Of a DNA stretch of 64,000 bases, positions 6,483-51,193 are shown piece after piece. The stretch covers positions 2,848,001-2,912,000 of the forward strand of contig OY970223.1 in the NCBI GenBank assembly GCA_963714015.1, read 5' to 3'. The translations under genes and the position numbers were made by a program. A model generated the notes under the pieces. It worked only from the letters and a program-made list of their open reading frames with translations. It ran no database searches and was not told the DNA's origin. Each line of letters begins with the position of its first letter. The stretch's first letter is position 1. Source of the stretch: Vulcanimicrobiota bacterium. Lineage in GTDB: Bacteria > Vulcanimicrobiota > Vulcanimicrobiia > Vulcanimicrobiales > Vulcanimicrobiaceae.

Positions 6483-6591
6483 CGCCTTCCGCTTACCAAA
6501 CATTTTCGTCGAAGCCCTCGTATTCGGAATATAGGGCCCGGTGCGCCAGCGGGCAAGTTTGTCGAACGAGTCGGGACATAGCGGGATATAT

Positions 6592-16949: not shown

Positions 16950-18203
16950 ATGGGAGTCGTGAATCGGGAAGCACCGGCGGTGGCGATATCGTACGTACAC
17001 GGCTACCGCGATCTGGAAATATTGCGCTTGAGCAATTGCCTGCGGCGAGACGGCGTTGATTGCGAAATCGACCAATACGAGCCTGCGCCGGAAACGGGTT
17101 GGGCGCGTTGGATGGCAGAGATGATGACGGAGCGCATCGTGCTCGTCGTGTGCTCGGAATTGTACAACCGGCGCTACCATCTTCGCGACTCGCCCGGAGT
17201 GGGACTCGGTGCGACGTTCGAGAGTGGTCTGCTCGTTCAGCGTGCTCTCGATGCGCAGGGGCGCAACAAGAGCATCATTCCGCTGCTTTTGGATTCGAAC
17301 GATGCTCGGTTCGTTCCGGATTTTCTCAAGGATGTGACGCGTTACGACTTAAGCCACGGCGGCGGCTACGAGGATCTGCTGCGTCGACTGACCAACCAGC
17401 CGGCCGTCCTGCGCCCTCCGTTGGGCACCGTTCCCCACCTTCCGCCAATCGTAGCCGATCCCGCTATGGCAACGCGCCGCAATCTCATTTTGTTTCAGTC
17501 CGAATCCTCCGGGTTTTTCGGCATGCCGCTCCTGGATGTCGAACGTGCCGAAAGCTTTCGCTTGACCGTCACGCCTGATGATTCGGCGGACGTCGCCAAA
17601 CTGCGCAGCCTCAAGAACGAACGCGGCCGCTTCCCGATCGCCTACGGATTGACGGCAGCCTTCGTTCGGCTGCGCAACCTCCGCGAGTTCATGCGAGACG
17701 CGCAAGAGCGCTTCGAACTGGACCTCGTCGAAGTTCCATTCAACAGCGGATTTGGTACCGAAATGTCTTACAACGGAATATCCGCAGACAAGATCGCGGA
17801 AATGCGTGCGCGCCGGATACTTCTGGACGAACCTTTGCCAAACGTTGGCGGCAGCGGATGGGGCGGCGATCTCAATCAGATGACTTTCGAGATGTTCGTA
17901 AGCGGAAGCTCCTCGAGCGGCGACCGCCTCGCCGTGAAATCGTCCCCTGTTCCGCCGCTTGTGCGGGCCATGTCCAACAGCAACGATACGGTCCCGGCAA
18001 CCAAATTGGTGTGCGTCATGCTGCTGATCCTGAGTGGTGCCGTCGAGCATATCTCGCGCCTTGAAATGTCGCTGGAAAGGGGCGATATGCGAATTGATTT
18101 TGAGGGAATTCGGCATAAGACGTACTCGAACGCCGAGCCGGCGCGTATCACGCTGTCGGGCGTTTGCCCGGTGAGTGGAACGGCGAACCAGTACACACAA
18201 TGA
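16950..18203 (+). CDS. SEFIR (TIR-like) domain protein
   Basis: ISYVH...LRRDGVDCEIDQYE...GWARWM...VLVVCSELY...GLGATFE. Confidence 0.85.
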   Translation: MGVVNREAPAVAISYVHGYRDLEILRLSNCLRRDGVDCEIDQYEPAPETGWARWMAEMMTERIVLVVCSELYNRRYHLRDSPGVGLGATFESGLLVQRALDAQGRNKSIIPLLLDSNDARFVPDFLKDVTRYDLSHGGGYEDLLRRLTNQPAVLRPPLGTVPHLPPIVADPAMATRRNLILFQSESSGFFGMPLLDVERAESFRLTVTPDDSADVAKLRSLKNERGRFPIAYGLTAAFVRLRNLREFMRDAQERFELDLVEVPFNSGFGTEMSYNGISADKIAEMRARRILLDEPLPNVGGSGWGGDLNQMTFEMFVSGSSSSGDRLAVKSSPVPPLVRAMSNSNDTVPATKLVCVMLLILSGAVEHISRLEMSLERGDMRIDFEGIRHKTYSNAEPARITLSGVCPVSGTANQYTQ

Positions 18204-18364: not shown

Positions 18365-18599
18365 GGGTATCCGTAATACATTGTTGGTCGGGCCGAGCGG
18401 CAGGCCCGGTAATACGACATGAATATCGCAACACATTGTTGACGGGTGCTCCAAGACATGATAGTTTAATATCGTAATCTATCGTTGGAGGAGCCGGTGT
18501 GACCGCAGCCGAGTTAACCGCTGTTGGGCGTAATTCCCAAATTGAAGATGCCGACTCCGACCCTTATTGGCACGAGGCCCGCCGCGACGGTGCTCATCC

Positions 18600-19952
18600 A
18601 TGAGCGGGAACATTCTCAACCTCCCGCAGTACCGCGTCGAGCACGTGGATGAAGGTGAACACGACTACCACGTTTACGCCGAGACGCTGCACCCTCGCGT
18701 CGTTTGCGAATGCGGCTCGCATGACGTGAGCCGGTGGGGGACGCACGAGCAGGTCGTCAGGGACTTACCGATGCACGGGAAGCGCGTCGGGATCTACCTA
18801 CGCACACGCCGCTTCCGTTGCAACGCTTGTGAGAAGACCGGTTTCGAGCGCCTTCCGGCTGTTTCTGAAAAGCGGGCAATGACGGAGCGTCTTGTTCGCT
18901 GGATCGGCGCGCAGAGCCTCAAGCGCACGTTTTCCTCCGTTGCCGAAGAGGTTGGCGTGACGGAAGGTACCGTCCGCAATATCTTCCGCGATCACGTTAC
19001 CGATCTGGAAACGCAGGTGCGGTTCGAAGTGCCGCGGTGGCTCGGGATAGACGAAATCCATATCATTCGCAGGCCGCGCTGCGTCGTCTCGAACATCGAG
19101 GCGAAGGCTATCGTCAATATCTTGCCCGACCGCAATAAGCGAACCGTTATGGCGTATCTGCACGCGATGAAGGGGCGAGGGCGGGTGAAGTATGTCGCGA
19201 TGGATATGTGGACGCCCTACCGCGATGCCGCCGCCGCCGTCTTGCCCGACGCGAAGGTCGTGATCGATAAGTTCCACGTCGTCCGAATGGCCAACGTGGC
19301 CATGGAGCAGGTGCGCAAGACCCTGCGGGCCCGGCTTTCGCCGAAAGAACGGCGGGGGCTCATGCACGATCGCTTCTTGCTGCTCAAGAGGGAGTACGAA
19401 TTGACTGCGCAGCAGCGGTTCCTTGTGAGTTCCTGGGCGACGCTGCATCCCGAACTAGGCGAAGCGCACCGGCTCAAAGAGCAGTTCTTTGCCATCTACG
19501 ACGCAGAGGACAGGCACGACGCCGTAGACCGCTACGGCAAGTGGGCAACGAGCATTCCGCCGTCCCTGAAGGCGGCCTTCTCCCCAATCACCACGGCTTG
19601 GCGCACATGGCACGACCCGATCCTCAACTATTTCGACCATCCGATCACCAACGCATACACGGAATCGCTGAACAATCTGATTCGCGTCATGAACCGGCTG
19701 GGGCGGGGCTATTCCTTCGAGGCGTTGCGGGCCAAGATTCTCTTCACCGAGGGGCTGCACAAGCACAGCAATAGGCGACCCAAATGGGAACGGCGCTCAT
19801 CACGGCGCGAGTCTGGCAAGACGTACATGTCGGCGATCATATCCTACGACGCGGCGGAGTTCAGCCGGCGCGCGTTTGAGGCAGAGGATGCCATCAACCT
19901 CGGCGTGGACATCGCAGCATTAACACGTCGAATCGAGGCCGGTCGTTTCTAA
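18600..19952 (+). CDS. ISL3 family transposase
   Basis: N-terminal zinc finger; LGIDE, VAMDMW, VIDKFHVV and TNAYTESLNNLIR motifs. Confidence 0.95.
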   Translation: MSGNILNLPQYRVEHVDEGEHDYHVYAETLHPRVVCECGSHDVSRWGTHEQVVRDLPMHGKRVGIYLRTRRFRCNACEKTGFERLPAVSEKRAMTERLVRWIGAQSLKRTFSSVAEEVGVTEGTVRNIFRDHVTDLETQVRFEVPRWLGIDEIHIIRRPRCVVSNIEAKAIVNILPDRNKRTVMAYLHAMKGRGRVKYVAMDMWTPYRDAAAAVLPDAKVVIDKFHVVRMANVAMEQVRKTLRARLSPKERRGLMHDRFLLLKREYELTAQQRFLVSSWATLHPELGEAHRLKEQFFAIYDAEDRHDAVDRYGKWATSIPPSLKAAFSPITTAWRTWHDPILNYFDHPITNAYTESLNNLIRVMNRLGRGYSFEALRAKILFTEGLHKHSNRRPKWERRSSRRESGKTYMSAIISYDAAEFSRRAFEAEDAINLGVDIAALTRRIEAGRF

Positions 19953-29622: not shown

Positions 29623-30120
29623 TCAAAACCATGGCTCTAAAAATGCCCGGCGCGGACGCGCGGGGCTTTGGATCATTGCAGCCGCTCCTGGGGGGCCTCC
29701 TCCGGGCGCGGGTGCGCCGGCTGGAGCGCCGAGGCTCGCCCTGGGATTGCCCACGCCGTTTGCATTTCCAGCGACAGATGTTGCGCCAGACGCCGTTGCA
29801 AAGATCAGAAAGCCATTTAGCACGCCCATCAGATAGTCGACGCCGCCTGGCGGAGGCCCGTCCGGAACGGTGAGCGTCGGCGCAACGTACACCCCGATAC
29901 ATCCTACTAAGACCGACAGAGCCAGGCCAAGCCATCGCGGATTGAAGTTGAAAGCGCGCTGCAAACCATTTGAGACAACAAATACGATTGTGCTCGCGCT
30001 CGCCAGCGACGCAAAGCTAATTAAGGTGAAGAACTGACTCGAAGCTGTACCGCCCTCCGTGGGCGTCGTGGTACTCGTTTGTGATTGAAGAAACGCAATC
30101 ACGAAATGATAGTGCATCAT
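29623..30120 (-). CDS. Small membrane protein (~3 TM) with a Pro/Gly-rich tail
   Basis: Three hydrophobic segments; overlaps the upstream stop. Confidence 0.75.
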   Translation of the reverse strand: MMHYHFVIAFLQSQTSTTTPTEGGTASSQFFTLISFASLASASTIVFVVSNGLQRAFNFNPRWLGLALSVLVGCIGVYVAPTLTVPDGPPPGGVDYLMGVLNGFLIFATASGATSVAGNANGVGNPRASLGAPAGAPAPGGGPPGAAAMIQSPARPRRAFLEPWF

Positions 30121-31226
30121 GACACCTCCGATCGCAACGTTGTTGCAGTCCGTTTCCGGGTCGCGACATTGGCTTGAATCTGTGCCTTCCCTAGCGCTTC
30201 CAAGATCGGCTTTATTTCCCCTACCCCGTAGAGTTTGCCTGGTTCGAGCGGGTTACGGGCTGGATGCAGCGGAACGATAATGTCGCTAGCGTCGTCTGCG
30301 CTCTTGAGCCACAGCACCACGACGTGTATGCTGGGCATCCTTAAGAGACGACTCTCTCTCAGCGTGTGGTCGGCCCGCAAACGCGAACGCGTGTCACTTA
30401 TCCGCTGTAAAGTATCACCGACTTGCGGACCGCTAGTGATAGTTGCGTCTCGAAACGCGCCATCGACATCGTATACATCGATAGCGTAGGGACCATCTGA
30501 AGACTGGCTGAGCTGCTGCCAACCTACCGAAACGGCCTTGTCCAAGTTAAAATCGTTCGCTAAATCAGCAAGTCGCATGGCATAAATTTGGCTTACGCTT
30601 TGTCGATCACCCTTGCTAGGCGCTCGCGCTCTTCGCTTCTTAGGCGATCTTCGTGGTTTGGCCGTGAAGTTGTCAAATGTGGAAGCCACTGCGGTTGGCG
30701 GCATCGCGTGCGCAATCGAATCTTGGGCTACGTTTGCGAATGTCTGCGTGTAGTAGGTCGATACCCAACTCCAGCTTCCAAGATATTTATTGCAGAAGTC
30801 ATCGTAACCGCACGGTGCGATAGTGCCGTGTTCGGGATCGCAGATTTGTAGCGTCGCCGGAGACGTTGATGCCGCCGAGATTACGACGAAGTGATCGGTG
30901 CCGTCAAAGTCTACGCCGGCCGCGACAGGGCGGCCGGCTTGCAACTCTTGCACGATCTGGTCTACCGGAATCGTTCCGGACACCGGTGCGTTGAGGTTCT
31001 GCGTACTGGATAGCGCGGCATCGAGTGCGGCCGGCTTGTTGCATGCTGCGTTCTTGGGGCAGCAGCCGGAAATTTGGAGAACTTCTTGGGCGAGGCTACA
31101 CTGCGACCAAGGGCTTCTGTTGGGATCGTAAAACCGTGACACGCTCACCGCAACCGCAGCCCAACACCACTGGTCTTGGAGTTGCTGTTGGATGCTAAAC
31201 GCTACGCTGGCCTCCCAGTTGCTCAT
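30117..31226 (-). CDS. Papain-fold cysteine peptidase (C39-like) fused to an uncharacterised C-terminal domain
   Basis: QQQLQDQWCWAA (Cys), DHFVVI (His), ICDP (Asp); C-terminal RLLRMPSIHVVVLWL domain. Confidence 0.85.
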   Translation of the reverse strand: MSNWEASVAFSIQQQLQDQWCWAAVAVSVSRFYDPNRSPWSQCSLAQEVLQISGCCPKNAACNKPAALDAALSSTQNLNAPVSGTIPVDQIVQELQAGRPVAAGVDFDGTDHFVVISAASTSPATLQICDPEHGTIAPCGYDDFCNKYLGSWSWVSTYYTQTFANVAQDSIAHAMPPTAVASTFDNFTAKPRRSPKKRRARAPSKGDRQSVSQIYAMRLADLANDFNLDKAVSVGWQQLSQSSDGPYAIDVYDVDGAFRDATITSGPQVGDTLQRISDTRSRLRADHTLRESRLLRMPSIHVVVLWLKSADDASDIIVPLHPARNPLEPGKLYGVGEIKPILEALGKAQIQANVATRKRTATTLRSEVS

Positions 31227-31242
31227 TTTGAAAAGCGGCCAG

Positions 31243-32851
31243 TCAAGGCTTTTTGGGTGTTTGTCCGGACGTAGCAGTACCTTTCGTGTTCTTAGTGGAC
31301 GTTTGAGGTGACTTTGTGCTGTTGCCGTTTTCGGTTGGAAAGATCGGAATGCTAAAGGCGAAGCCGAATCGGTTCGTAGCCTGTGACGTCGTCGAAATGC
31401 TAGTTCCGGAGGGCACGATTTGATTTACCATGTAGCCGTTCAGCGAGTTAACATCGGCGCGAAATATGCCTAAACTAAAATAGAAGGATTGATTTAGAGA
31501 GGCGCTCAACCCGATCATGCCGCTGGCGAACTGTTGCTGAGATGTGGTAATAGCAAACGTTGCGTGCAACGCCCAAGGGCTCGGGTTGCTTGTAAGGCGA
31601 TAGTGCACCATTTGCGTCATCAGGAATGGTTGGCCCGAGTCTTGCCTATTCGGCTGGATTTGCGTCACGTTGCTCGTGCCGGACATCGTTGTGCCGGTTT
31701 TCCACGATCGATTCGGAATGTTGCTATAGCCGATGCCGTGTGTAGATGTGATTCTGCTAGGCCCCACAAGAACCAGCAAATCCTTTTTAAATACGGCCGC
31801 ATCGGAAGATGAACTGTCGGACGTATCCGAGTTGTTGTCGCCTGTCGTTGCGCCGGTTGAAGGCGTCGAGCCTTGACCTCCTCCCGTTGCGCCGCCGGAT
31901 GTCCCTGCGTCGGTGGAGGACTTGTCTTGGGCGTCTGTCGTCGCGCTGGTTGTCGACGTCTTGTTCACTGCAGAACCCGAAGCGGCGGCGCTTTTGACGA
32001 GCGTTCTATCGATCGCAACGAATGATACGGTTGCGTTGTCGGCGTACGCGCCTTTCGGGCACGACAATACTTTCTCGGGGAGAGTAAAATCCGCTGGTTG
32101 AATCGCGCTTAATACGGGCTGCCAGGCAATGATCGCCTTTATGGATTGATTTATAGCGTTGCTTGTGTCGTCTGAATCCGATTGGAATCCCGAAACCTCT
32201 TTGCTTAGGTCGCTTAAGACGCTTTTTTGCTCGGCCGTAACGCCTGCGCTGCCTTGAGCGAGTCGAACAGCTGCTACAGCAGCGTTTATCTCTTTACTCG
32301 GCCAAACAAAACTGGTTTGCGTACGCTTTATGGTCGCGGCTTCGTCATGGGCTTGTTTAACGATGGACGAGATGTCGGCATTCTCGTCGTCGGCTTCCAC
32401 CACGATCTGTTGAACGGCCGTAGCACGCGGATTCAGGGAATTGCGCAAGGTATCGATTGCGTTCTCTGCCGCCTGCACGGCCTTGACCGCTTCATCGAAG
32501 TTACTACCGGCACTTTTGCCGTGCGTCTGTTCGCTGCCGCCGACCACTCCGCTTGTGGCGGACTGGCCGAGATCGCCGAACGGGTTGATATCCGTCGGCA
32601 GAGAGCAGTCTGTGTATAACGCTTACTTGAGCCGACGCATATCGAAGCGCATTGTAGCGAACGGTAAGCGATGCCGGACATATTACCTGTTCGTTTTGAT
32701 CCGGCGTCGCGGCATTTACAAAAATCGTTTCCGGATCAGCCGCGGAGGCTGGCTCAACGAAACACGGCAGGAACGCTAGAATGGCCGCGCCGGCTAACAA
32801 AGTGCGTTGCAAGTGCACGGAGGGAGCCCGGGCCAAATAAAATTGAAGCAT
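31243..32851 (-). CDS. Secreted protein with a helical region, Ser/Thr/Gly linker and beta-rich C-terminus (frameshift ~32600)
   Basis: Signal peptide LLAGAAILAFLPCFVEPASA in the upstream frame; 434-aa downstream ORF. Confidence 0.7.
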
Positions 32852-36371: not shown

Positions 36372-36407
36372 AAAGAAGGTCCCGTGCAACCGCGGGACCT
36401 TCTTTTT
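36372..36407. terminator. Intrinsic, likely bidirectional terminator
   Basis: AAAGAAGGTCCCG-N8-CGGGACCTTCTTTTT. Confidence 0.8.
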
Positions 36408-39769: not shown

Positions 39770-40114
39770 ATGGCGGACCAGGCTCGCGAGGTGGCGTTCA
39801 CGCGCTCGTTCTTTCGCAACCTTGAGCAGATCGAAAAACACATCCGCAGGCGCAGCATCATCCGGCAGATGATCGAGCGCTACGGCAACAACGTCGCGGA
39901 AGCGTGGCGGCATCTCAAACCTAACGAGCCGACGTCTGGATTCATGCAACTGTATGAGAACGGCTTGCTGCATCTCAGCATTGAGGCGTTGATGCTCGAA
40001 AGGCAATGGCAAGACGTGTTCACGCGCGACAATCGGAAAGAGGCGCTAGACGCGCTCGCGTCGTTGGACGCGGAATGGCGCGAGCGCGTTGACGGCGACT
40101 ATTTCTTGAAGTGA
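39770..40114 (+). CDS. Hypothetical protein
   Basis: SGFMQLYENGLLHLSIEALML...FT motif. Confidence 0.7.
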   Translation: MADQAREVAFTRSFFRNLEQIEKHIRRRSIIRQMIERYGNNVAEAWRHLKPNEPTSGFMQLYENGLLHLSIEALMLERQWQDVFTRDNRKEALDALASLDAEWRERVDGDYFLK

Positions 40115-40336
40115 CGGTCAAAGGCGAAGTGATTGCCGCGGCCCGCCTGCGCGCGAAGACTGGAAGCGTTGCCGTAATAGGATGCCGCGAAGGCGCGGCG
40201 CGGCTGGTCGTCGAGCGGATCGAGGCCGTCTCCAACCGGCTGTCGCCGGCATCGCACAAAAAAGCCGTCGCGGCCGCTAGAATGTGCCAGGCGTATGTCA
40301 TCTCCGTGGGTAACGCTCAAGCCGGAGGTGGCTCAA

Positions 40337-40459
40337 ATGCAACGAGTGCATCCTATCGCGGCCCTCGTGACCGCCGCGTCGATCTTCTTGACCGCGGAGT
40401 GGTTCATCCGCCGCGAGGAATCGCTCCTCGCCAAATTCTTCGGTTCTCTCGGCTACTGA
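40337..40459 (+). CDS. 40-aa membrane peptide
   Basis: GGAGGT RBS; single hydrophobic segment. Confidence 0.5.
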   Translation: MQRVHPIAALVTAASIFLTAEWFIRREESLLAKFFGSLGY

Positions 40460-40469
40460 GGCGGCTCGA

Positions 40470-40671
40470 ATGCAGTCGTTTAAGGTAGCGCACGTGCGCG
40501 AGCAGGGCGTCGATCTCATCATCGTGTTCGTTGACGAACGCGTGAGCAATATGACAGACGCCGACCGCCGCGAGATAGCGGGACGGCTCACGCTCTGCGC
40601 GCGCCATCCGCATAACAGATGTTATTAGGCGATTGAAGGCGATGGACAAAGAGATCGACATCTTGCTGTAA
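40470..40671 (+). pseudogene. Chimera of two gene fragments joined at ~40605
   Basis: MQSFKVAHVREQGVDLIIVF...LCAR breaks off; an unrelated tail IRITDVIRRLKAMDKEIDILL* follows in another frame. Confidence 0.5.
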
Positions 40672-40895
40672 CGTTACGTTTGCTTATATCACATCGCACA
40701 TTTCACGCACGATCTTGAAACGTGGCGCAACGTGGGAAGTTCCATGCCGCAAGGCTACACTATTTCTGCTGCGAAAGCTACGAAGGCACAAAAAGCGATC
40801 TACGACGTACTCGATGCACTTGCCAAGCGCCGCGGCTTCGTGACGGTCGAACGCGTGAGGCATTCGCACACTCCTCGCAGGACGCGGGGCATGAA

Positions 40896-41724
40896 GTGAA
40901 CGACAAATCTGCAAGGCAAACATCGCGTACGAAAAGCCGCAGATCGCAGGCGGATCCGCAGGCGCGCGCAGCGCTTTCTCTTGACGCATCTCGAGAGCGG
41001 CAACGCGTTCACGAAGGAAGAGTTTCGTACCGCTAGCGGATGGCCAGCCCAGACCTTCAAGACATACTGGTCGAAGCGGTTCGCTCAGATCATTCGACGG
41101 GGAGGCGTCGGGAAATACAGAGTGGACGGCACGTTCGAGCGATTTCGTGGCTTAGGCGCGTTCCGTCGCTACATGAGTCAGGCGACGGGAGATCGAGGGG
41201 TCTATGCTTTGACGAAGTTTCCCACGGTCGTTACATACGAATTCTATTTGCCACTGGCGCATGAAACTACGCTAAGACGTACTCTGGATGCTTTGTTCTA
41301 CGAGGACAGCGTTATGCCGCGATTAAAGCGCATGGATATCAGAGAACTCGAAGAGCACTTGCCTTCCGAGATGCTGCTGGGAGAAGCGCCAGTACTTGAA
41401 CGCGCAAGGGAATTTGTTAATCGCAACTTCAGCGGATACTCGATTTACCACGTCAGCGGGCGGTTTCGTGCCGACGACATCAACTCTCAAGCGGCGGCCA
41501 CCTCGTCATCCGCGAACGGTGAGCCGTATCTAATTGATGAAACTACAGCCGTGGTGCAATTCATCTTTCCTTGCTTGAGCCAAGCCGAAGCCGCTAGGAC
41601 GCGATTGCTGTTTCACAGCCTCTTCGTTCAACCGATCATAGACTTGATAAGTGGCGAGGATCAGATCTGGATGATTGAAACTGGGACGGGCAGCAGTGCT
41701 CACGTGTGGAAGAACCAGGGGTAG
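40896..41724 (+). CDS. Hypothetical protein with an N-terminal HTH-like region (frameshift ~40980)
   Basis: 247-aa ORF plus an upstream frame. Confidence 0.7.
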
Positions 41725-41729
41725 CAACT

Positions 41730-41738
41730 TGGTATAAT
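41730..41738 (+). promoter_or_regulatory. Extended -10 promoter element
   Basis: TGGTATAAT matches TGnTATAAT in intergenic DNA. Confidence 0.5.
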
Positions 41739-42132
41739 TGCTTGCATAAGCATGAGATCCGACTAAGCCGCCAAGGCGGCCGACATGATCAAGAACTTGC
41801 GCGTTTCCAATCCCATGTAGGCGACTCGAAAATAAGCCAGATCAATTTTGTGGACCCTTGCTCGCAAATGGTTCTTCAATCCAGATCGATTTTCGCGAAT
41901 GCGGATTGACACTCCCGGGCGAGCATTTGTTTCCACGTCTGAGAGCCAGACGCGTGTCAATCGACCAAAGAATCGCAGGAGTAAAAAGGCACAAAGCGAG
42001 CGGTTGGCGGCTATATATCAAGCGAGTAGGCGTTGGATGTCTTGCTTGCAACGGGATCACCAATATTGGGGATGTCCGGGTCGTAGTTCCCGCGATAGGT
42101 TCGCAGAGCAGCGCCCGTTTCAAAGGGAGGGA

Positions 42133-42681
42133 ATGCTGATGGACGCCTATCTGCAGTCGAGGTCGTGGACGCTGGGCGATACGCGTCCTGCCACGGATCC
42201 TAGACAATGGGCTCGCTATTCTTCGCTTCGTCGCGCACAGCGCCGTCGAACACCCCGTGTGCTCAACGCCAAAAAGGACGGTGAGGCGGTGCATACCGAG
42301 TGAAAAAAGACGAACCCCGAAGGCGCAGCCTACGGGATTCGAAAACGCCCGACGGGGAGCAGGTCCTGCAAGATGAGCTCCGCCGTTCAGCACGGTCATT
42401 AAAGCACATCCGGATGCGCCGTTCAAGTGGCGCTGCGGCGTCTGCTTCCCGTCGGGCTTTCTCCACTTCAGCTTCGGAGGAAAGCCCGCATGAAAAGCAC
42501 CCTACCGATTTCGAAACGCCGTTCGCGCGGCCAGCGCGATTCCCGTCGCAAAGATGCCGCCGAATGCGAGATCGTTCTGCGGCGCGAGAACGCCCCGGCG
42601 TTGACGGACGGCCACGATCTTGAGCCGTTACTACTGTTGCGCTTGTTGCAAGAGGCCGACGAGGGAAACGGCGATGCCTAA
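42133..42681 (+). other. Run of small overlapping basic ORFs (42133-42303, 42300-, 42490-42681)
   Basis: GGAGG RBS and stop/start overlaps; phage/ICE early-operon style. Confidence 0.45.
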
Positions 42682-43123
42682 ACGACCCAGCTTCCTGACG
42701 GCGCGCCGAGTGGCGATTGCCCAGATAGCCGTGCCCACGGCAAAAGGCCTGATGTTCTCAGAGACCGCGGTCGAGATTTGTCCCAAGAACCCGCTTACCG
42801 ATTATCGCCGTTCTCTCGGCTTCGAGATCACCGATGCCGCAAAAGTCACCGGGCTGCCGGCGAATCTTTTCCTAGCCATTGAAGCCGCAACGGTCGACAT
42901 GTCGGCCCGCGAAGTGCTTGTGCTTCGCGGGCTGTACGAGCAAATCGCCGAGCACGCGAACTCGCCCTCTCAGAAACAACGCGAATGCGACGACCGCAAC
43001 GTGAAAAGTTGGGATGACGACCTCTCGCGTGAGATCGATGGTGTCGTCGAGAGCGGAACGCCGATAGCTCTTGCATACATCGACCTATTGGGGAGATCGT
43101 TGCCTGACGGTGACAAGTGTTGA
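42674..43123 (+). CDS. XRE-type helix-turn-helix protein
   Basis: LTDYRRSLGFEITDAAKVTGL...LAIE. Confidence 0.65.
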   Translation: MPKRPSFLTARRVAIAQIAVPTAKGLMFSETAVEICPKNPLTDYRRSLGFEITDAAKVTGLPANLFLAIEAATVDMSAREVLVLRGLYEQIAEHANSPSQKQRECDDRNVKSWDDDLSREIDGVVESGTPIALAYIDLLGRSLPDGDKC

Positions 43124-43294
43124 GCACTCGAAAATTTACGACGCGCCGGTCGTACTGGCCGTATACGACTCGCTTTGCACTTTTAAGAAACGAAGATTCG
43201 CACGACCCCTTGCACGAGAGATACGTCTGAAACAGACAGCACTTCTGATTTTTCGCAAGAGATCTTTGAAAACTGAATAACGATTTTAACTTGC

Positions 43295-43404
43295 GGCTCT
43301 CCGCCAAGCGGAGACGTGACGGAGAGCCGATGTGCGGTGCGCGTTCTTTTATCTTCAAAAGCCGTGATGGCTCTCCATCCTTCGACGACATGGGCGGAGA
43401 GCCG
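43295..43404 (+). repeat. Two hairpin units GGCTCTCC-N10-GACRTG-N1-2-CGGAGAGCCG with a 39-nt spacer; candidate ncRNA
   Basis: Units at 43295-43329 and 43369-43404, intergenic. Confidence 0.7.
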
Positions 43405-43437
43405 GATATCGAAATCTGTCACCGGTTAGCGCCAGAA

Positions 43438-44082
43438 TTACCATGCGATCCGCCCGGGCCACGGCTTGCCGCTGAGCCGTTCGATTGCGTTACGTGTGCC
43501 TCGATATCGATCACCGTCATAGGCGGCTTTCCGAACCGTCTCGACAATGGACAGCACGACGGCGTTCTCGCGCGCAGTTCGCGCCGGCATGGCGATGTAT
43601 TCGTAGCCGGCGACGACGTCCGGAGGCACGTCGGCGAGCAGGATGAGGTCGCGAATGATCCGCTCGAAGCGAAAGCCGGCATGATTCTTTAGAACGATCG
43701 AAACGTGCCCGGCGGTCGAGTGCACGATTCGAACTTGGGTTTCGAAGTTTTCGAGGTTGCCCAACGTGCGCAGACACATGGCCAGCGTCCGCACCGTGAA
43801 GCGGCCGACGCGAGCGTCGCCGATTTTGCGGTCCATCGTTCGGCAAACTTCGGAGATCGCGGTCGAGGCGGCTTTCTCTGCGGCTTCGAAATTAAATTGG
43901 TGCGGGCGAAGATCGAGGTCTCCGGCTGGCGCTTCGAACCTCAGATGCATGGTTTGTCGCACTTCGTCGAGCGGGAATCGTCGACAGTGTACTTGGATTT
44001 TGCCTCCTGCGATGGTGCAGACCATCTCCTTGTCGAGAAATTGCGCTCGTCCTGCTTCCGGAAAGTACGTTGACTTCATCAT
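43438..44082 (-). CDS. Hypothetical protein
   Basis: AGGAG RBS; 214-aa ORF. Confidence 0.7.
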   Translation of the reverse strand: MMKSTYFPEAGRAQFLDKEMVCTIAGGKIQVHCRRFPLDEVRQTMHLRFEAPAGDLDLRPHQFNFEAAEKAASTAISEVCRTMDRKIGDARVGRFTVRTLAMCLRTLGNLENFETQVRIVHSTAGHVSIVLKNHAGFRFERIIRDLILLADVPPDVVAGYEYIAMPARTARENAVVLSIVETVRKAAYDGDRYRGTRNAIERLSGKPWPGRIAW

Positions 44083-44126
44083 TTTTCTCCTGCGGTTGAC
44101 GCAGTCCAAGACCGCGGAGAAAAACG

Positions 44127-45032
44127 TCATCGAAAGTCGGAGTACCGCCAGTCCTTTATGAAGCGCACCTCGTCGGAAAGCATTCTTTCGGGGTTTTCGA
44201 CAACATAGCTGCGCATCCACAAATCGGCTAGACACAAGAGCGACGTCTCGAGCACTTCGATTTGAGTGTCTTGACAGCCGGCGACCGCCATGGCGGCGAT
44301 CGCGAGTCGCCCGGGCACGTTGTCCGCAAGGAGTTTCAAGCGCGTCACCGTCAGTGTCGGCTCGACCCACCTCCTGAAAGCCTTTTCGAAAACCCTGCGA
44401 TGTCGGTGGAGGTACATCAGATCGATTTTCGCGGTTTCCCGTCTCAAGACGGACTGGATACCGTCGAGAAACGCGTCGCGCCGGCTTCTGGCGACCTCGT
44501 GGACCTCAAAGACGTAGCGCGCAAGCGACTGCGAACTGTCGAAGTCGCTGCCGCGATTCATGGCAAAGCCGATGGCGACGTTGTCGTTGTGGTCCAAAAC
44601 CGTGCTTCCACTAAGCGCGCTCGCCGCGCTTAATCCAAGCCAGAGATCGTAAACGTCGTCGCGCAACTGCTTGGACCGTGGTACGGCCAACGCGGTCGCC
44701 AGCGTGCCGACGACGTCGATATAATGACCGCAGGTCCAGAGCATCCATAGACCGCTGCACCAGGCGATTCCCGATGATTTCAAAGCTTCGCCCAGAGCCC
44801 AAGAGCGTCGCGCGTCCGGAGCATGCACGCCTCGTCTCCAATCGTCGAAACTTTTGCCTGCGGTAGTAGAGGATTTCGGATCCCATTTTTCGATGGCGCG
44901 CTCCAGCGCCCTTACTACGCGACCGCGATAGGGACGCACGTCAAGACGGTTTTTCCGACCTTCGGCCTTGACCAACATTTTCAGTATGCGCGAAAGGCGC
45001 TGTTCTACGGCATTCTTCAGAGTGCGCGGCAT
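44127..45032 (-). CDS. Hypothetical protein with a possible XRE-like DNA-binding region, divergent from the transposase
   Basis: KSFDDWRRGVHAPDARRSWALGEAL. Confidence 0.7.
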   Translation of the reverse strand: MPRTLKNAVEQRLSRILKMLVKAEGRKNRLDVRPYRGRVVRALERAIEKWDPKSSTTAGKSFDDWRRGVHAPDARRSWALGEALKSSGIAWCSGLWMLWTCGHYIDVVGTLATALAVPRSKQLRDDVYDLWLGLSAASALSGSTVLDHNDNVAIGFAMNRGSDFDSSQSLARYVFEVHEVARSRRDAFLDGIQSVLRRETAKIDLMYLHRHRRVFEKAFRRWVEPTLTVTRLKLLADNVPGRLAIAAMAVAGCQDTQIEVLETSLLCLADLWMRSYVVENPERMLSDEVRFIKDWRYSDFR

Positions 45033-45159
45033 GTCCAGATCATCGTTCCAGATCAGCCGGCACGACCTTTTTTAAAATCGCCGGGCTGCGTTCGGGCAAC
45101 GCAGGGAAGTACAATTGCGCCACGTTGGGCCGCTCGATACTGAGTGCCCCGCGAAAAAC

Positions 45160-45640
45160 CGGCTCCTTGAAAACCGAAAATTTGAAATGTCGGCCGCAGG
45201 CTGGCGCATGCACGATCTCGTTGTTTACGTCGAGGACGCGCATGTCGCTCCGTTATGCGGCGTCAATGAGCGGCGTCCGAGTCGGCATAGCCGGAATTTC
45301 AACGTCGCAGTCACTCGAGCCCGGAAGGCGGGCGAATCGCGAACGGTGAGGGCCTCACCGTTCGCGAGAACGATGAGGCCCCTACACAAGTCCCCGGTGG
45401 CATCTCCAGTTTTCGACGCTGAGAGCCGTCGGGCACCCGACCAGTATGCGCTTTCCGCTACCGCCCTCGCAAGGGGGCACGCGGGCGCGGTCGGACCCGA
45501 CCGGGGACGCACCGCAACAGGAGATTGTTGTGCGTAAAACTCCAGAAAACGGGCGCTTCTATCGAGCGCCAATTCGGCATGCGTCGATTTGGACGCGCGT
45601 TATGCGCGAGAACGGCTGCGTCCGCCCGGGAGGCAGGATC
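45160..45640 (+). ncRNA. Candidate structured non-coding RNA/leader upstream of the transposase
   Basis: At least eight hairpins, including a perfect 14-bp stem (45337-45367) and a GCAA tetraloop; no credible ORF. Confidence 0.5.
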
Positions 45641-45642
45641 CC

Positions 45643-47410
45643 ATGCTGAGCCCGGGGCACGGCACACCTGCGAAGCCTAGCGAGGTCTTCCCGTACAAGC
45701 CGCCGCGCTTCATCCGCGAGGATTCCAAGCGCGCCCGGCTAGAGGCGGACGCCCTGGCCGCCATGGCGGATGCGGGCATGGGCCGCAAAGATGTCCGCTA
45801 CGTGCACGCCCTGGAGGACGAGCCCGTCGATCAGGCCCAGCTCGATGACGAGGTCAAGGGATCGCCCGACGGTACGATTTTCTGGGTGCGGTCCAGCTCG
45901 TGCCGGCAGTGCAGCGGCAAGAAGCCGCGCCGCCGCCGGGACAAGAAAACCGGGAAGCTCATCGAGCCCAAGAGCAAGCCGCACGCTCCGGGCAAATGCC
46001 GCAAGCGGGAGCGAGAGCGCGTCACCCGCATGGGCGAAGACGTCTTCACGTGCTCGCACAAAGGCTGGAAGAACGCCCAGCAGTGCGTGCACATCCGCAA
46101 GGCCAAGAAGAAACTGGGCATCCTCTCCGGTCCGTACTCGACGGCGCGCCGCCGCAAGCCGACGATCTGGATCTTCTCCTCCGGCTTTAAGGAGGCGACG
46201 CGCCGAAGCAACGCCTACAAAGAGATGCCCAGACGCGTTCCGCAACTCGCCTACGAATTCTGCCGGCGCTTCGTCACGCCGCCGCGGAGTGCCGGGCGTA
46301 CCGGAATTCCGTTGGCCGCAGTGTGCTTCGCGCTGCTGATGAAGGTGTTCATAAACCGCGATTATGACGGCATGGTGCACACGCTCGCGCACGACGAGAC
46401 CGTCAGCAAGTTCTGGCGATTGCTCGCGCCAAATTTCGCGGACGAGTTGCCGGAAACAGGCACGTTTTCGAAGCGCTTCGGCAACGAAAATCTGACGCCG
46501 TACATGTACGACATCATCCCTGCGCAGGGCAAAATGGGCCGCAAGATCGATTACATGAACCTGATCGATTCGGACCAGCATCCCAAGATACCGACCATGA
46601 ATTCGTGCACGCTCAAGTTCGGCGGTCCGCCGCCGGCGTGGCGGAAGGTGGCGGAGATGGTGAAGCGCCACTTCGGGATCGGCAACGTGAGCAACCTGAT
46701 CGTCGCGCTGGACGTGACGCTCGACACCGGCATCGGCTCGAGCGACGGCTGCCATCTGCCCAGCATGGCGCGCCAAATGTTGGAAGCGCAGGGACGGCCG
46801 TTTCCCTCGGCCGCGGATCAGGCGTACTCGGGCAAACGCAACTTCCGCGAGTTGCAAAAGATGGGATTCGAAGCGCTCTACATTCCCGAGAAGGCGAACG
46901 AGCAGCGCCTGACGGCGCGCAACGAGTGGTGCGAACTGGCGAAGAAAATGGCGGCGTTCGAAAAGGACCGCGAGCACGAGTACAAGTCAAACCAACGCAA
47001 TCGCAGCAAGGCCGAGAACTACCCGTCAAGATCGAAGCACTACTATCCGATGGGACGGCTGCGCGCGCGAAAGGGCGATCCGAAGCCGGATTACCCGAAG
47101 GATCTGAAACTCACGGACGACGGGAAACTGGACGAGCAGTCTGTCTCTGCTCCCAGAGGACGTCATCGAACGCATCATCAAGGCCGCGGAAGTCGCAGTC
47201 GGCGTCGCCCCTTTGAACGAAACGCTCGCGGTCGCCATCGTTGACAACCTGCGCTCGCTGGTGATGCTGGAGCACCTCTTCGACGTGCGCGTGGACTTCG
47301 ACGATCCGGAGTGGGCGTTCGAGGGGATCACGACGGTTTTCGAAGAGGAGATCCGCATCCAGGTGTCAGGACCGAGGCCGCGGCCGTCGGACGGAATGGA
47401 CCCGGCGTAG
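45643..47410 (+). CDS. SWIM-like zinc finger + IS4/IS5-like DDE transposase (frameshift ~47150)
   Basis: FTCSH...QCVHI finger; LIDSD, AADQAYS and RSKAEN catalytic motifs; NETLAVAIVDNL C-terminal helix; GGGAGG RBS. Confidence 0.8.
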
Positions 47411-47958
47411 CCGGCGCTGGCGCGTCGCGCCGTGCCACTCGGCCGGACAGGTGCGCGTGCCAAAGCGTTCGCCGATCACGGCCTGCAACGGCACCATGAG
47501 ATCCATGGATGACGGACCGGAGTTCCGCGATGAACTCCGGCCCGCGCGTCCCCGCAGAAAGTCGGATTCATCGATCTCGATGAAGCACTCCCGCTCGTTC
47601 TCGCGGATTCGGCACCCCAATCGTTGCGCGGTCCGCGGCCCGTCACCGAATACCAGCGCGGGCGGTTTTCGGCGGGAAAGCGCAAACGCCGTGCGGTTCA
47701 CGAGACCTTCGCTCGTCAGCGGTTCCACTCGCCGTCGGTCTCTTCGAACCGGTCGCGTTCCGGAGCCATCCGGCCGTTGGGGTAGCCGCAAGCGATGCTG
47801 CCGAAGTAGAGGTATCCGTTGCGCCAAACCTTCGGAAGGTCGTCAAGCCGGTCCGCGACCGGCGTCTCGTCGTCGCCCGGCTTTTCCGAAAGCAGCGCTT
47901 CGAGCGCCGCGTCCAGGCCAGCAATGTGCTTCTCGGTGTTGCAGTCGATGATGTGCAT
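47366..47958 (-). CDS. Hypothetical protein (frameshift ~47720)
   Basis: GGGAG RBS and MHIIDCN start; continues in a second frame. Confidence 0.45.
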
Positions 47959-48022
47959 TTGCGTCTCCCGTGATCGACGGAATAGTAGCATCGATCTTCG
48001 TCTGATGAAAGTCGCGCCGAAG

Positions 48023-48056
48023 GAAAAGAGCCCGACCTCATCGCCGGACTCTTTTC
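48023..48056. terminator. Terminator-like hairpin inside the right end
   Basis: GAAAAGAGCCCG-N10-CGGACTCTTTTC. Confidence 0.7.
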
Positions 48057-48071
48057 GTGTTCCTCGCGCGC

Positions 48072-48184
48072 GCGAATGCTGGAAATCCGTTATTCGTTAT
48101 GCGAATTCTGGAAATGGGCGCGAATTCCGCAAATCCGATTTTGCGTAGGGGCCAATTCTGGAAACGCCTTGCAAAATTGGATTT
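48072..48184 (+). repeat. Right-end motif array: four direct copies plus one inverted half-site
   Basis: 48072 GCGAATGCTGGAAATCC, 48101 GCGAATTCTGGAAAT, 48120 GCGAATTCCGCAAATCCGATT, 48151 GCCAATTCTGGAAAC; inverted AAATCCAATTTTGC at 48171-48184. Confidence 0.85.
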
Positions 48185-48197
48185 ACGGTGTACGACA

Positions 48198-48206
48198 CGC
48201 TACATC
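48198..48206 (+). repeat. Right 9-bp direct repeat CGCTACATC overlapping the fliE stop
   Basis: Identical to 2554-2562. Confidence 0.8.
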
Positions 48207-48550
48207 TGCATTTGGGAGATTTCGTTGTACGCGCTGAGCAGCTTGTTGCGGATAGCCAAGGTGAACTGCATTGCAAGGTTCGCCTCTTCGACCGACGTCA
48301 CGACCTTGCTCACGTCGTTCGTCTTGCCCGTGGCTAGATCTTGGGAAAGCTGATTGGACTGCGTGACCTTGTCATTGACGTCGCCCAAAAACGACTGCAC
48401 CGTATCTTTGAAAGACGGCGTTCCGGAGACGCCGGCCGCGCCCGCCGAAGAATTGCCGCTCGAATCGCTGCTGCCCACGCCGACGTCCGGAACGAACGTT
48501 CCGGGAATGGCCTTGCTCATGGCGGCGTTGTAGCCTGCGTTGATTTCCAT
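48200..48550 (-). CDS. fliE: Flagellar hook-basal body protein FliE
   Basis: EEANLAMQFTLAIRNKLLSAYNEISQMQM; follows flgBC. Confidence 0.95.
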   Translation of the reverse strand: MEINAGYNAAMSKAIPGTFVPDVGVGSSDSSGNSSAGAAGVSGTPSFKDTVQSFLGDVNDKVTQSNQLSQDLATGKTNDVSKVVTSVEEANLAMQFTLAIRNKLLSAYNEISQMQM

Positions 48551-48552
48551 TT

Positions 48553-48996
48553 TTATCCTGCACTGCGCAGCAGATTCAAAGTTGCGCTCGACATGAGGCG
48601 AGCTTCTTGCATTGCGGAGACGTTTGCCTGATAGGCGCGCGAAGCGGCCATCAGATCGACCATCTCTTTGATTACCGAGACGTTCGGATAGTGAACGTAG
48701 CCGCGCGCGTCGGCGTCGGGGTTGCTCGGATCGAACTCGAGCCGATCGGGACTGTTGTCCTGCGTGATGCCGAGCACTTGAACGCCGTCCTGTGACGAGG
48801 AACTGCTCTCGGGATCGCCCGGATCGGACGAGCCGCCGGTTTTCTGCGCGAAGACGACCAGCTGCCGTTTGAACGGGCCGCCCTGCGGCGTATGCGTCGT
48901 GTTGGCGTTGGCGATGTTGTTGGCGATGACGTCCATCGCCAGCCGTTCGGCCGAAAGGCCGGAAGCGCTGATCTCGACCGAATCGTATAAACTCAT
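48553..48996 (-). CDS. flgC: Flagellar basal-body rod protein FlgC
   Basis: ISASGLSAERLAMDVIANNIANANT; YPNVSVIKEMVDLMAASRAYQAN. Confidence 0.97.
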   Translation of the reverse strand: MSLYDSVEISASGLSAERLAMDVIANNIANANTTHTPQGGPFKRQLVVFAQKTGGSSDPGDPESSSSSQDGVQVLGITQDNSPDRLEFDPSNPDADARGYVHYPNVSVIKEMVDLMAASRAYQANVSAMQEARLMSSATLNLLRSAG

Positions 48997-49424
48997 TGCG
49001 GCTGCTCCGTTACGGCCTCACGAAGGCGCATGAACTGCACTTGAAGCAGCTGCGACATCGTCTGCGAGTAGCTGGAGTTTTGCGCCAGCGAGGCGGATTC
49101 TTGATCCAGGTCGATGTTGCTGCCGTCAACGCGCATTTGATCGCTGTCGTCCACTTGTATCTGCGGGTCGAACGGAACGGGGCCGTTCGTACCGCCCAGT
49201 TGCCGGCCGTCGTCGACCGCCATCGGCAATTCGTCGCTAGAGGCGGGATCGCCCGAGGCCGCCGCCAGCTCGTCTTTGAAATTGACGGTTTGACGCCGGT
49301 AATTCGGCGTGTTCATGTTCGCAATGTTGGAGGCTATCGCGCTGTTCTCCAGACCTGCTCCGGAAATCGCGTTGCTCAACGTGTCGACCGTCGAACCGAA
49401 GCCCACGGCGCTGATGTCACTCAT
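48993..49424 (-). CDS. flgB: Flagellar basal-body rod protein FlgB
   Basis: IASNIANMNTPNY; RVDGSNIDLDQE. Confidence 0.95.
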   Translation of the reverse strand: MSDISAVGFGSTVDTLSNAISGAGLENSAIASNIANMNTPNYRRQTVNFKDELAAASGDPASSDELPMAVDDGRQLGGTNGPVPFDPQIQVDDSDQMRVDGSNIDLDQESASLAQNSSYSQTMSQLLQVQFMRLREAVTEQPQ

Positions 49425-49456
49425 TACCTACCGTATCGGCCGCAGGCAGGCGCCTT

Positions 49457-51193
49457 TTAAGCGAACTGGGTGGCGTGAAGGCGGGCATAGGCGCCGCCTT
49501 TGGAGAGCAGCGCTTCGTGGGTGCCCATTTCGAGAACTTGTCCCGCTTCAATGTAAAGAATCGTGTTGGCTCGGCGGATGGTCGATAGGCGATGCGCGAT
49601 GATCAGGGTCGTGCGCCCGGGGAGAAGGCGGTCCAAGGCCTGTTCGATCAGGGCCTCGGAGTGGCTGTCCAAAGCGCTCGTCGCCTCGTCCAAAATCAAG
49701 ATTCGAGGATCGCGCAGAATGGCGCGCGCGATCGCGATGCGCTGGCGCTGGCCGCCGGACAGACGGGTTCCTCGCTCTCCCACCTCGGTATCGTAGCCGT
49801 CGGGAAACGCGCTGACGAACTCCTCGGCGTTTGCCTCACGGGCAGCCTGGCGGACCTGGTCGTCCGACGCTTCCAGGCGACCGTAACGGATGTTGTCTAC
49901 GATGCTGCCGCGGAAGAGCTGCGCCTCCTGCGGCACGATGCCGATGGCGGCGCGCAAATCGCTCAGACGAACCTCGGCCAGATCGACTCCGTCGAGCGTT
50001 ATGCGTCCGCGCTGCGGCTCGTAAAAGCGCGGCACGAGATTGACTATCGTGGATTTTCCGGCTCCGGAAGGCCCGACCAGCGCGACGATCTCGCCCGCTT
50101 CGATGTGCACGTCGAAGTCGCGCAGAACCGGTCCCTCGCCGCTCTCATAGGTGAAGTCCACATGTTCGAAAACGATTTGCCCCCTGACGTGCCGGAGGGG
50201 CCGTGCTCCGTGTTTGTCCGGCCGCTCGACCGGCAGGTCGAGCACCTCGTATACACGCCCCGCGCCGACGACTGCGCGCGAGAGATCTCCGACGAACGCC
50301 GCAAAACGGTTCATCGGATTGATCAGATTCGCCAGTAAACCCCAGTACATGAAGAGTTGACCAACATTGATCCGGTGAACGACGACCTCGCGCGTGGAGA
50401 GCCAGATGATCGCGACGATCGCGCTCGACATCAGGACGGAGAGCACGAGCGGCTGCGTCTGGATGAATTGCGTGAGCTTCATGTAGACGTTGAAATACTG
50501 CTCGTTGCGCTCGCGAAAACGCCGCGATTCGTAGTCTTCGCGGCCGAACGCCTTGATGATCCGCTGGCCGGTGAGCGCCTCCGTCAAAGAAGCGGAAAGA
50601 TCCGAGATGCTCTCCTGCGAGCGGACGCTGCTTGCCGCAATCAGGCGCTGAAAACGCGACACGGCGAGCGAGACGATAGGCGCAACGACCACGAGGGAAC
50701 ACGTGAGCAGCCAGTCCAGCTTGATCATCACGATGAGCGACGAGACGAACGTGACGGTGTTATTGACGAGTTGCGGAAGAGAGACCGTGACCGCGTCCGT
50801 CATAATCTGCAGATCGCTGTTGAAACGCGCTATAAGGTCGCCGGGACGCCATTTTGCGAATTCGCCTAATGGGAGGCGCAGAATTCTTTCAAAGAGGCGG
50901 TCGCGCATCCGCGCGACCAAGTGCTGACCGCTCCAGGCCATCAGGTAACTCTGACCATAGGTGGCGAGCGCGCCCGCGATCAGCGCAGCGAAGATAAGAC
51001 CGAGGGTCACGTACAGTGCTTGCAAATCGGGCTGCTTGGCGGCAATGACCCGATTGATGATCTCCCCGAAGCCCCACGGTCCGACCAAGTTGGTAAGGCC
51101 GCCTACCGTTCCCAAGAAAATCGCCAGGGCCAGCGTGGGATAGTATGGCCGAGCGTCTCGCGCTATGCGCTTGACGATTTCCGGCTGAGTCAT
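49457..51193 (-). CDS. ABC exporter, permease + ATPase (MsbA-like)
   Basis: TM domain, GPSGAGKST, LSGGQRQR, ILDEATSALD. Confidence 0.95.
   Translation of the reverse strand: MTQPEIVKRIARDARPYYPTLALAIFLGTVGGLTNLVGPWGFGEIINRVIAAKQPDLQALYVTLGLIFAALIAGALATYGQSYLMAWSGQHLVARMRDRLFERILRLPLGEFAKWRPGDLIARFNSDLQIMTDAVTVSLPQLVNNTVTFVSSLIVMIKLDWLLTCSLVVVAPIVSLAVSRFQRLIAASSVRSQESISDLSASLTEALTGQRIIKAFGREDYESRRFRERNEQYFNVYMKLTQFIQTQPLVLSVLMSSAIVAIIWLSTREVVVHRINVGQLFMYWGLLANLINPMNRFAAFVGDLSRAVVGAGRVYEVLDLPVERPDKHGARPLRHVRGQIVFEHVDFTYESGEGPVLRDFDVHIEAGEIVALVGPSGAGKSTIVNLVPRFYEPQRGRITLDGVDLAEVRLSDLRAAIGIVPQEAQLFRGSIVDNIRYGRLEASDDQVRQAAREANAEEFVSAFPDGYDTEVGERGTRLSGGQRQRIAIARAILRDPRILILDEATSALDSHSEALIEQALDRLLPGRTTLIIAHRLSTIRRANTILYIEAGQVLEMGTHEALLSKGGAYARLHATQFA

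Follow-up and report, generated by a model that had tools for sequence, protein, structure and literature searches.

A palindrome-centred, hairpin-dense region upstream of a SWIM-finger DDE transposase gene in a Vulcanimicrobiota genome, and the structured element found upstream of its relatives

We analysed the hairpin-dense DNA directly upstream of a transposase gene in a 64,000-nt window of a Vulcanimicrobiota bacterium (contig OY970223.1; "the window" is the whole stretch analysed, and all coordinates refer to it unless a locus is named). The region 45244-45642 is non-coding, carries a 31-bp perfect palindrome and has an exceptional potential to fold, and it lies between two orphan open reading frames (ORFs) on the minus strand and the transposase gene on the plus strand. 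Our preferred reading, which we hold tentatively and at a little short of an even chance, is that this is a cis-regulatory region combining divergent promoter(s) and the 5′ leader of the transposase, in which the palindrome resembles an operator and one hairpin would cover the ribosome-binding site (RBS). A first-pass annotation of this DNA had listed a regulatory 5′ leader as an alternative to its own proposal, an RNA cofactor or guide for a site-selective transposase, and it is the alternative that we prefer here.

A non-coding, hairpin-dense region between divergent genes

The guanine-cytosine (GC) content by codon position is flat, at about 0.6-0.7 in all three phases, from ~45250 to ~45640. 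On this ground, 45244-45642 was delimited as a divergent intergenic region presumed to hold promoter(s) and the transposase 5′ leader. The first-pass annotation had described ~480 nt of non-coding DNA, which holds for these ~400 nt and probably not for 45160-45243. These leftmost 84 nt belong to a minus-strand ORF of 67 aa (45040-45243), the codon-position GC of which is coding-like (0.63/0.40/0.66) and the stop of which falls 8 nt short of the start of a 301-aa ORF (44127-45032, minus strand; 0.59/0.46/0.69), also divergent from the transposase. The 301-aa product matched no Pfam, PHROG or NCBIfam family, and neither ORF has a homologue besides itself among 5.8 billion clustered proteins.

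The minimum free energy (MFE) of 45160-45645 is −224.8 kcal/mol on the plus strand (z −3.60) and −223.4 kcal/mol on the minus strand (z −3.75), and on each strand none of 100 dinucleotide shuffles was as stable. We also compared the region with the rest of the window by regressing MFE on GC over 318 overlapping 400-nt segments covering the 64 kb: 45201-45600 ranks second in GC-corrected stability (z −3.18), and the intergenic region proper, 45244-45642, reaches z −2.81. The most stable segment after GC correction, 30801-31200 (z −3.44), lies inside a 435-codon minus-strand open frame (30117-31424). The hairpin-dense character described at first pass exceeds chance on both strands, though the signal is concentrated in 45315-45390, which is individually exceptional (z −4.1 on the plus strand, −4.7 on the minus). 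The segments 45420-45510, 45500-45580 and 45575-45650 reach only z −1.1 to −1.9, and a pair of twin hairpins within 45426-45505, described below, is not exceptional either (z −1.7 plus, −1.4 minus).

The exceptional segment contains the perfect palindrome TCGCGAACGGTGAGG / CCTCACCGTTCGCGA (45337-45367), located in the divergent intergenic DNA ~300 nt upstream of the transposase ATG. The pairing is perfect, as had been claimed, and the length is not quite that of the "14-bp stem" first described: the arms are 15 nt long and 100% complementary around a 1-nt centre. A third half-site, GAACGATGAGGCCC (45368-45381, plus strand), is 93% complementary to 45350-45363, and this pairing excludes that of the palindrome, so that two mutually exclusive pairings exist; the MFE structure of 45315-45390 adopts the alternative one. 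Counted as a 14-nt motif, the half-site is present in three copies inside the 41 bp of 45341-45381, in the order forward, reverse, forward.

Perfect stems of at least 12 bp with loops of at most 12 nt occur at just three places in the 64 kb, the palindrome being one of them. An intrinsic terminator is expected to combine a GC-rich stem with a T-run; the palindrome has no T-run on either flank and therefore is not a canonical terminator. The other two long stems (36372-36405 and 2502-2529) are canonical intrinsic terminators, with 13-bp perfect stems and T-runs, and they show that the organism uses such terminators, unlike the palindrome.

Reading the sequence directly, we found every motif listed by the first-pass annotation in its place. 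The following hairpins are, like the palindrome and the region itself, assigned to no strand unless one is given. A 5-bp hairpin (GCCCG-GAAGG-CGGGC, 45319-45333) precedes the palindrome. Further on, the twin GTCGG/CCGAC hairpins (GTCGGGCACCCGAC, 45428-45441, and GGTCGGACCCGACC, 45489-45502, both within 45426-45505) can alternatively pair with each other, enclosing a GCAA-tetraloop stem (GCCCTC-GCAA-GGGGGC, 45463-45478). They are followed by the hairpin ACGCA..CAACA / TGTTG.TGCGT (45507-45535) and by a 6-bp hairpin (GGCGCT/AGCGCC, 45552-45570), which on the minus strand continues into CGTTTTCTGG, is terminator-like in that orientation and is a possible end of an antisense RNA. Closest to the gene, the MFE structure of 45575-45650 contains a 7-bp plus-strand hairpin (45616-45636), the 3′ arm of which includes the Shine-Dalgarno-like GGGAGG (45628-45633), sitting 9 nt ahead of the ATG at 45643.

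In the reading we favour, the region would separate a divergent orphan operon from the transposase gene and hold the putative promoter(s) together with a long 5′ leader, which would keep transposase expression low. The 31-bp palindrome and the third half-site, with their two mutually exclusive pairings, may act at the DNA level as an operator or as an insulating hairpin, and the small hairpin at 45616-45636 would bury the RBS just before the ATG. The 1-nt spacer between 15-nt arms suits a double-stranded DNA binding site, since an RNA form would need to open at its centre, and the equal folding of the two strands is what the Watson-Crick symmetry of DNA predicts, not what a strand-specific RNA would require. 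The head-to-head placement of the genes and the concentration of the stability signal in one palindrome cluster also support the reading. We infer the role in regulation, the binding protein and the transcription of the region.

Several observations weigh against it. The RBS-covering hairpin is statistically ordinary (z −1.1). A sigma-70-type scan of 44800-45900 returned no promoter-like site, and the two words proposed as signals at first pass, TACAAT (45110-45115) and the "boxA-like" CTCCTTGAAAAC (from 45163), are accordingly unsupported in that role. No regulator gene was identified beside the region, where both divergent ORFs are orphans, and neither the palindrome nor its 14-nt half-site motif is clustered or recurs informatively elsewhere in the window or in the genome. 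The region has no homologue in 348 genomes of the family that could show it to be conserved. Palindromes upstream of related transposases are heterogeneous, and at least two shorter ones (loci L015 and L019) look like ordinary T-run terminators placed before an Xis-like ORF. Furthermore, the transposase gene reads frameshifted: the locus could be decaying and its hairpins could be relics.

The SWIM-DDE transposase and the element R1 of its relatives

The first-pass annotation took the neighbouring gene for a DDE transposase, and this was borne out at the profile level. The first frame (45643-47244, plus strand, 533 aa as called) encodes a SWIM zinc finger and an IS5-like DDE transposase. The C-terminal ~90 residues, which align with the ends of P0004 and P0005, two relatives of full length, are encoded in the +1 frame (47108-47410, plus strand), and the frame switch falls near GGG/AAA runs at ~47127-47132. 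Full-length relatives have ~575-580 residues. Codon-position GC is 0.58/0.46/0.84, with third-position GC (GC3) of 0.84 in both frames; the gene may be either intact or broken.

Taken alone, the product matched no Pfam family at E ≤ 0.01, and its sole NCBIfam match was the IS5 model NF033579, at 22.9 bits against a cut-off of 140. A word-based search recovered two relatives, with 41% and 33% identity, and a profile built from these and the window protein retrieved, out of 1.84 billion representatives, 500 proteins at E ≤ 1e-3. Twenty-five of these 500 were scanned, and PF01609 (DDE_Tnp_1) was found in 20 and a SWIM zinc finger in 13 (E ≤ 0.01). The PF01609 matches of the relatives reach E 6e-28, and their best NCBIfam models are those of IS5/IS1182 (NF033579, up to 129 bits, and NF033551), all under the curated cut-off. 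Comparison of the close-family profile with proteins carrying SWIM and PF01609, performed with hhalign, gave a probability of 99.9% (E 1.2e-33, 381 columns). The residues D305, D388, R449 and E453 (P0004 numbering) are invariant in 11 sequences including the window protein; from their position and from general knowledge of such enzymes, we take the D, D and E columns to be the catalytic triad. The transposase is thus a member of an uncurated group of enzymes with a SWIM finger and an IS5-like DDE core, hereafter SWIM-DDE.

The 3.56-Mb genome contains the gene once. Elsewhere in it lies a distant SWIM-DDE paralogue that seems to be partial (L030, G000:C1:824511-825302; E 1.1e-29 to the family profile). 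No convincing pair of terminal inverted repeats was found between the upstream and downstream zones, either in the window or in five relatives. The presence of one copy and the failure to find terminal inverted repeats speak against an autonomous insertion sequence.

Upstream DNA was obtained for six relatives, one from a metagenome contig and five from genomes of the same family. The first-pass annotation had suggested examining the upstream regions of homologues for conserved structure, and the result was divided: a structured, covarying element, which we call R1, is present in four of the six, and it does not match the window region. These four loci (L003, L004 in G083, L006 in G146 and L007 in G177) share one layout, in which a ~163-nt non-coding R1 is followed by an 89-aa ORF bearing a C-x-C...C-x-H SWIM finger and then by the transposase, which is 37-42% identical to that of the window. 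The R1 copies lie at L003:3972-4131 (+), L006:759-918 (+), L007:595-762 (+) and L004:3455-3634 (−). Their DNA is 78-91% identical between loci, against 63-67% for the transposase coding DNA.

RNAalifold predicted seven helices in R1. In the alignment, 92.6% of the cells pair and both partners have changed in 10 of the 37 pairs; neither value was attained in any of 500 shuffles, and controls in which the structure was slid along the alignment gave 37-47% pairing and at most four both-sided pairs. With four sequences, this covariation is suggestive of the fold and is not proof of it. A few nucleotides separate the 3′ end of R1 from the Shine-Dalgarno-like sequence that precedes the start codon of the small ORF, which places R1 as a cis-acting leader would be placed. 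Thus, a structured leader occupies the same position in the closest relatives, and this supports a leader role in general.

R1 matched no Rfam family, the search including the R1 locus L003. Together with the small SWIM ORF it appears to be undescribed, having no Rfam family and no such report in the literature as far as it was accessible. Further copies were sought in two ways. In 150 sampled genomes of the family, the R1 covariance model gave five matches of 22-27 bits, none near a transposase or a SWIM ORF, and they were taken as noise. A scan with the conserved 16-mer of R1 returned at least 120 stretches in genome contigs and 57 in viral contigs; the model scored at most 18.8 bits on 24 of the genome-contig loci and matched none of the 57 viral loci at E ≤ 1e-4, and we regard them as chance 16-mers in GC-rich DNA. 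A conserved block of ~80 nt upstream of the relatives was also considered as a tRNA, and ARAGORN found none in it.

The leader of the relatives differs from the region in the window. The R1 model did not match the window at E ≤ 1 with default filters; with filters off, over 40000-49000, the best score was 7.8 bits outside the region, within which only a 4.5-bit fragment was found (45594-45610). In six frames of 45000-45720 there is no trace of the small SWIM ORF, as all hidden Markov model scores were negative and tblastn gave no match in the region, nor does any frame of the region hold a remnant of the Xis-like helix-turn-helix ORF that is seen upstream of some relatives. By blastn, the region has no similarity to the upstream DNA of any relative.

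The search was extended to DNA of the 348 family genomes and returned only marginal matches of 20-50 nt, in 61 of the 347 other genomes. Five of them were inspected: the surrounding DNA is unrelated in every case, and three fall in conserved protein-coding genes that could be recognised as such; a transketolase-like ("VGPDG") match recurs across genomes because that gene is conserved. Against Rfam 15, the window gave no match at the gathering threshold and 40000-50000 none at E ≤ 1; the sole match of 45000-45700 at E ≤ 10 was to a miRNA model, with 20.4 bits where the threshold is 82. On the strength of these searches the region appears to be unique, leaving no homologue in which to look for covariation.

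Genomic setting and competing explanations

Two genomes of the same genus align to the window only from 48200 rightward (fliE, flgC, flgB onward), one of them also at 11-751. Since they have no counterpart DNA between 751 and 48200, ~47 kb (750-48200) is strain-specific by this comparison, and the SWIM-DDE gene is located at the right edge of this strain-specific region. The same region contains an ISL3 transposase (18567-19952), a TIR-domain protein (16950-18203), an HNH nuclease (5997-6503), DUF7669, EcsC and many orphan ORFs without a family. At its right boundary, in the 790 nt separating the transposase stop from the fliE stop, a 15-nt motif (GCGAATKCTGGAAAT-like) occurs four times at 48072-48165, with spacings of 19-31 nt. 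There is no tRNA or transfer-messenger RNA (tmRNA) gene within the window.

At three of the six loci of relatives (L155 in G146, L156 in G083 and L158 in G356), the 5 kb downstream of the transposase include the tmRNA gene, and in G356 the transposase stop lies 26-27 nt from the tmRNA 3′ end; at a fourth locus (L157 in G400) a tRNA gene is 7 kb away. A scan of 35 neighbouring ORFs of the relatives identified defence-type genes, including SAVED/Cap4, JAB and ThiF (forming a CBASS-like SAVED/Cap4-JAB-ThiF set in G177), a caspase-helicase, DpnII and HerA, in addition to two other transposases, and no tyrosine integrase. The tmRNA proximity and these neighbours agree, though circumstantially, with the first-pass premise that the enzyme is site-selective. 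Several relatives (the distant family members L015 and L019; L003:3678-3935) have a small Xis/AlpA-like helix-turn-helix ORF ahead of the transposase, a hint at an excisionase-like partner. The DNA after the stop codons of the relatives' transposases has no common motif.

The best surviving alternative to a cis-regulatory region, which we nonetheless consider unlikely, is that a single-copy transposase is decaying here and that the palindromes upstream of it are leftovers without function. This would account for a gene that reads frameshifted, for the lack of detected terminal inverted repeats and for the uniqueness of the region, in which the module of R1 and small SWIM ORF of the nearest relatives is gone without trace and three of four sub-segments fold at only z −1.1 to −1.9. 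It fits poorly with the undecayed state of the 31-bp perfect palindrome and its 93%-complementary third copy, and with a gene that keeps a strong coding signal (the GC3 of 0.84 holds in both frames) and the D, D and E residues; moreover, the frame switch falls at short homopolymers, and the gene may be intact.

Quite unlikely, in our estimation, is that the palindrome cluster is a DNA site of the transposase itself, such as one end of the transposon, a cluster of subterminal binding sites or a palindrome that it prefers as a target and beside which it inserted. Three half-sites in forward, reverse, forward order within 41 bp, next to a gene at the edge of a ~47-kb strain-specific region, would suit such a site, and the tmRNA proximity in three of six loci of relatives (one at 26-27 nt) suggests site selectivity. 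Long perfect palindromes are also overrepresented ahead of family members: perfect stems of at least 12 bp occur in the 600 nt preceding the start at 4 of 23 loci of relatives (13.8 kb), plus the window, against a background of 4 sites in 191 kb. We regard this enrichment as a weak pattern and draw no mechanism from it, and the palindromes concerned share no sequence and vary in position from −37 to −493. Furthermore, no half-site within three mismatches is present in 47411-48300, and no terminal inverted repeat joins the region to downstream DNA.

A minus-strand antisense or small regulatory RNA, similar to RNA-OUT, that pairs with the RBS and start of the transposase mRNA is very unlikely in our view. 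The terminator-like hairpin with its T-rich tail at 45570-45552 on the minus strand would end a transcript coming from the 5′ end of the gene and spanning the start codon. The two strands give opposite hints: between 45350-45363 and 45368-45381, pairing improves on the minus strand, where a G-U pair takes the place of an A-C mismatch, while the GCAA hairpin favours the plus strand (U-G instead of C-A). The scan for terminator-like sites gave 2, no significant excess over the 1.0 ± 1.3 of shuffles, and no promoter was found.

The trans-acting structured RNA, a cofactor or guide for a site-selective DDE transposase, that the first-pass annotation had put forward is highly doubtful. A region that adjoins the gene and can fold this strongly would be compatible with it. 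The relatives offer further points in its favour, since their R1 covaries and is better conserved as DNA (78-91%) than the transposase coding sequence (63-67%), and their islands lie near tmRNA/tRNA genes with no tyrosine integrase among the 35 neighbour ORFs scanned. Complementarity, assessed for the region and for R1 through exact matches only, with no G-U pairs or mismatches, stays at chance level. Between 45244-45642 and the rest of the window the longest exact match is 13 nt, against 12-15 nt in shuffles; there are 27 matches of at least 11 nt, against 15.6 ± 4.7 in shuffles, partly since the palindrome is counted twice. Between R1 and the 5.5-5.7 kb downstream of its transposase, tmRNA gene included, exact matches are at most 11 nt long and within the shuffle range. 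The layout of R1 is that of a cis leader, R1 is absent from the window, and the window region has no homologue, no Rfam match and two strands that fold equally; all of this leaves the guide proposal unsupported. To our knowledge, no DDE_Tnp_1-type enzyme uses a guide RNA. The accessible part of a recent preprint reports only IS110 and IsrB partners (10.64898/2026.10.21.760802).

A single-strand DNA origin, or the oriT of an integrated plasmid-like element, was the other alternative raised at first pass and is almost negligible, as the 62 window ORFs scanned with Pfam include no member of a Rep, relaxase or type IV secretion family to go with the clustered hairpins and the equal folding of both strands, and the hairpins recur nowhere else in the genome.

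Comparison with known systems

Structured 5′ leaders that hide the RBS of a transposase are known from the "fold-back inhibition" of IS10/IS50 and from the IS200 leader. The region in the window resembles them in being non-coding, in lying directly upstream of the transposase start and in having a hairpin that includes GGGAGG. It differs in being much longer (~400 nt), in being dominated by a 31-bp palindrome ~300 nt upstream and in its putative transcription; in addition, no terminal inverted repeat sets the region inside a defined insertion sequence. Operator palindromes in divergent promoter regions are a general kind of element, and here the likeness consists of a perfect inverted repeat with a 1-nt centre, placed between head-to-head genes and accompanied by an extra half-site. 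Unlike known divergent operators, no DNA-binding regulator was identified adjacent to it, and the divergent ORFs are orphans without a family. Taken for itself, the window region would be one more structured transposase control region, unique and of small stakes; of greater novelty is R1, found in the relatives.

The IS110 bridge RNA and the omega RNA of IS200/IS605 are likewise structured non-coding elements beside the enzyme of a mobile element, and R1 shares with them its covariation (PMC11208160; 10.64898/2026.10.21.760802; both as far as accessible). The enzymes of those systems are DEDD/RuvC-like recombinases or TnpB/IscB, whereas the enzyme here is DDE_Tnp_1/IS5-like with a SWIM finger. 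Further differences are that no loop complementary to a target or to element ends was found among exact matches, and that R1 sits like a leader before an RBS and a start codon. In the literature as far as it was accessible, we found no description of SWIM-finger IS5-like transposases, of their leader RNA or of DDE_Tnp_1 enzymes at tmRNA genes. It is conceivable, with a probability that we put very low, that SWIM-DDE transposases are the integrases of integrase-less accessory or defence islands and depend on a structured upstream RNA (R1 in one genus, the unrelated hairpin cluster here) as a cofactor tuning or directing integration. If true, this would be the first RNA-dependent transposase of the IS4/IS5-type DDE class.

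The nearest known enzymes are the transposases of the IS5 family and the IS1182-like ones (NF033579, NF033551, PF01609), which have a homologous catalytic core. The enzyme studied here differs from them by the N-terminal SWIM finger and a C-terminal extension of ~90 residues; its gene is single-copy, has no detectable terminal repeats and, like those of its closest relatives, is found at the border of an accessory or defence-type island. The group, together with R1, offers a concrete system in which to ask how a DDE transposase could be site-selective and whether an RNA leader participates.

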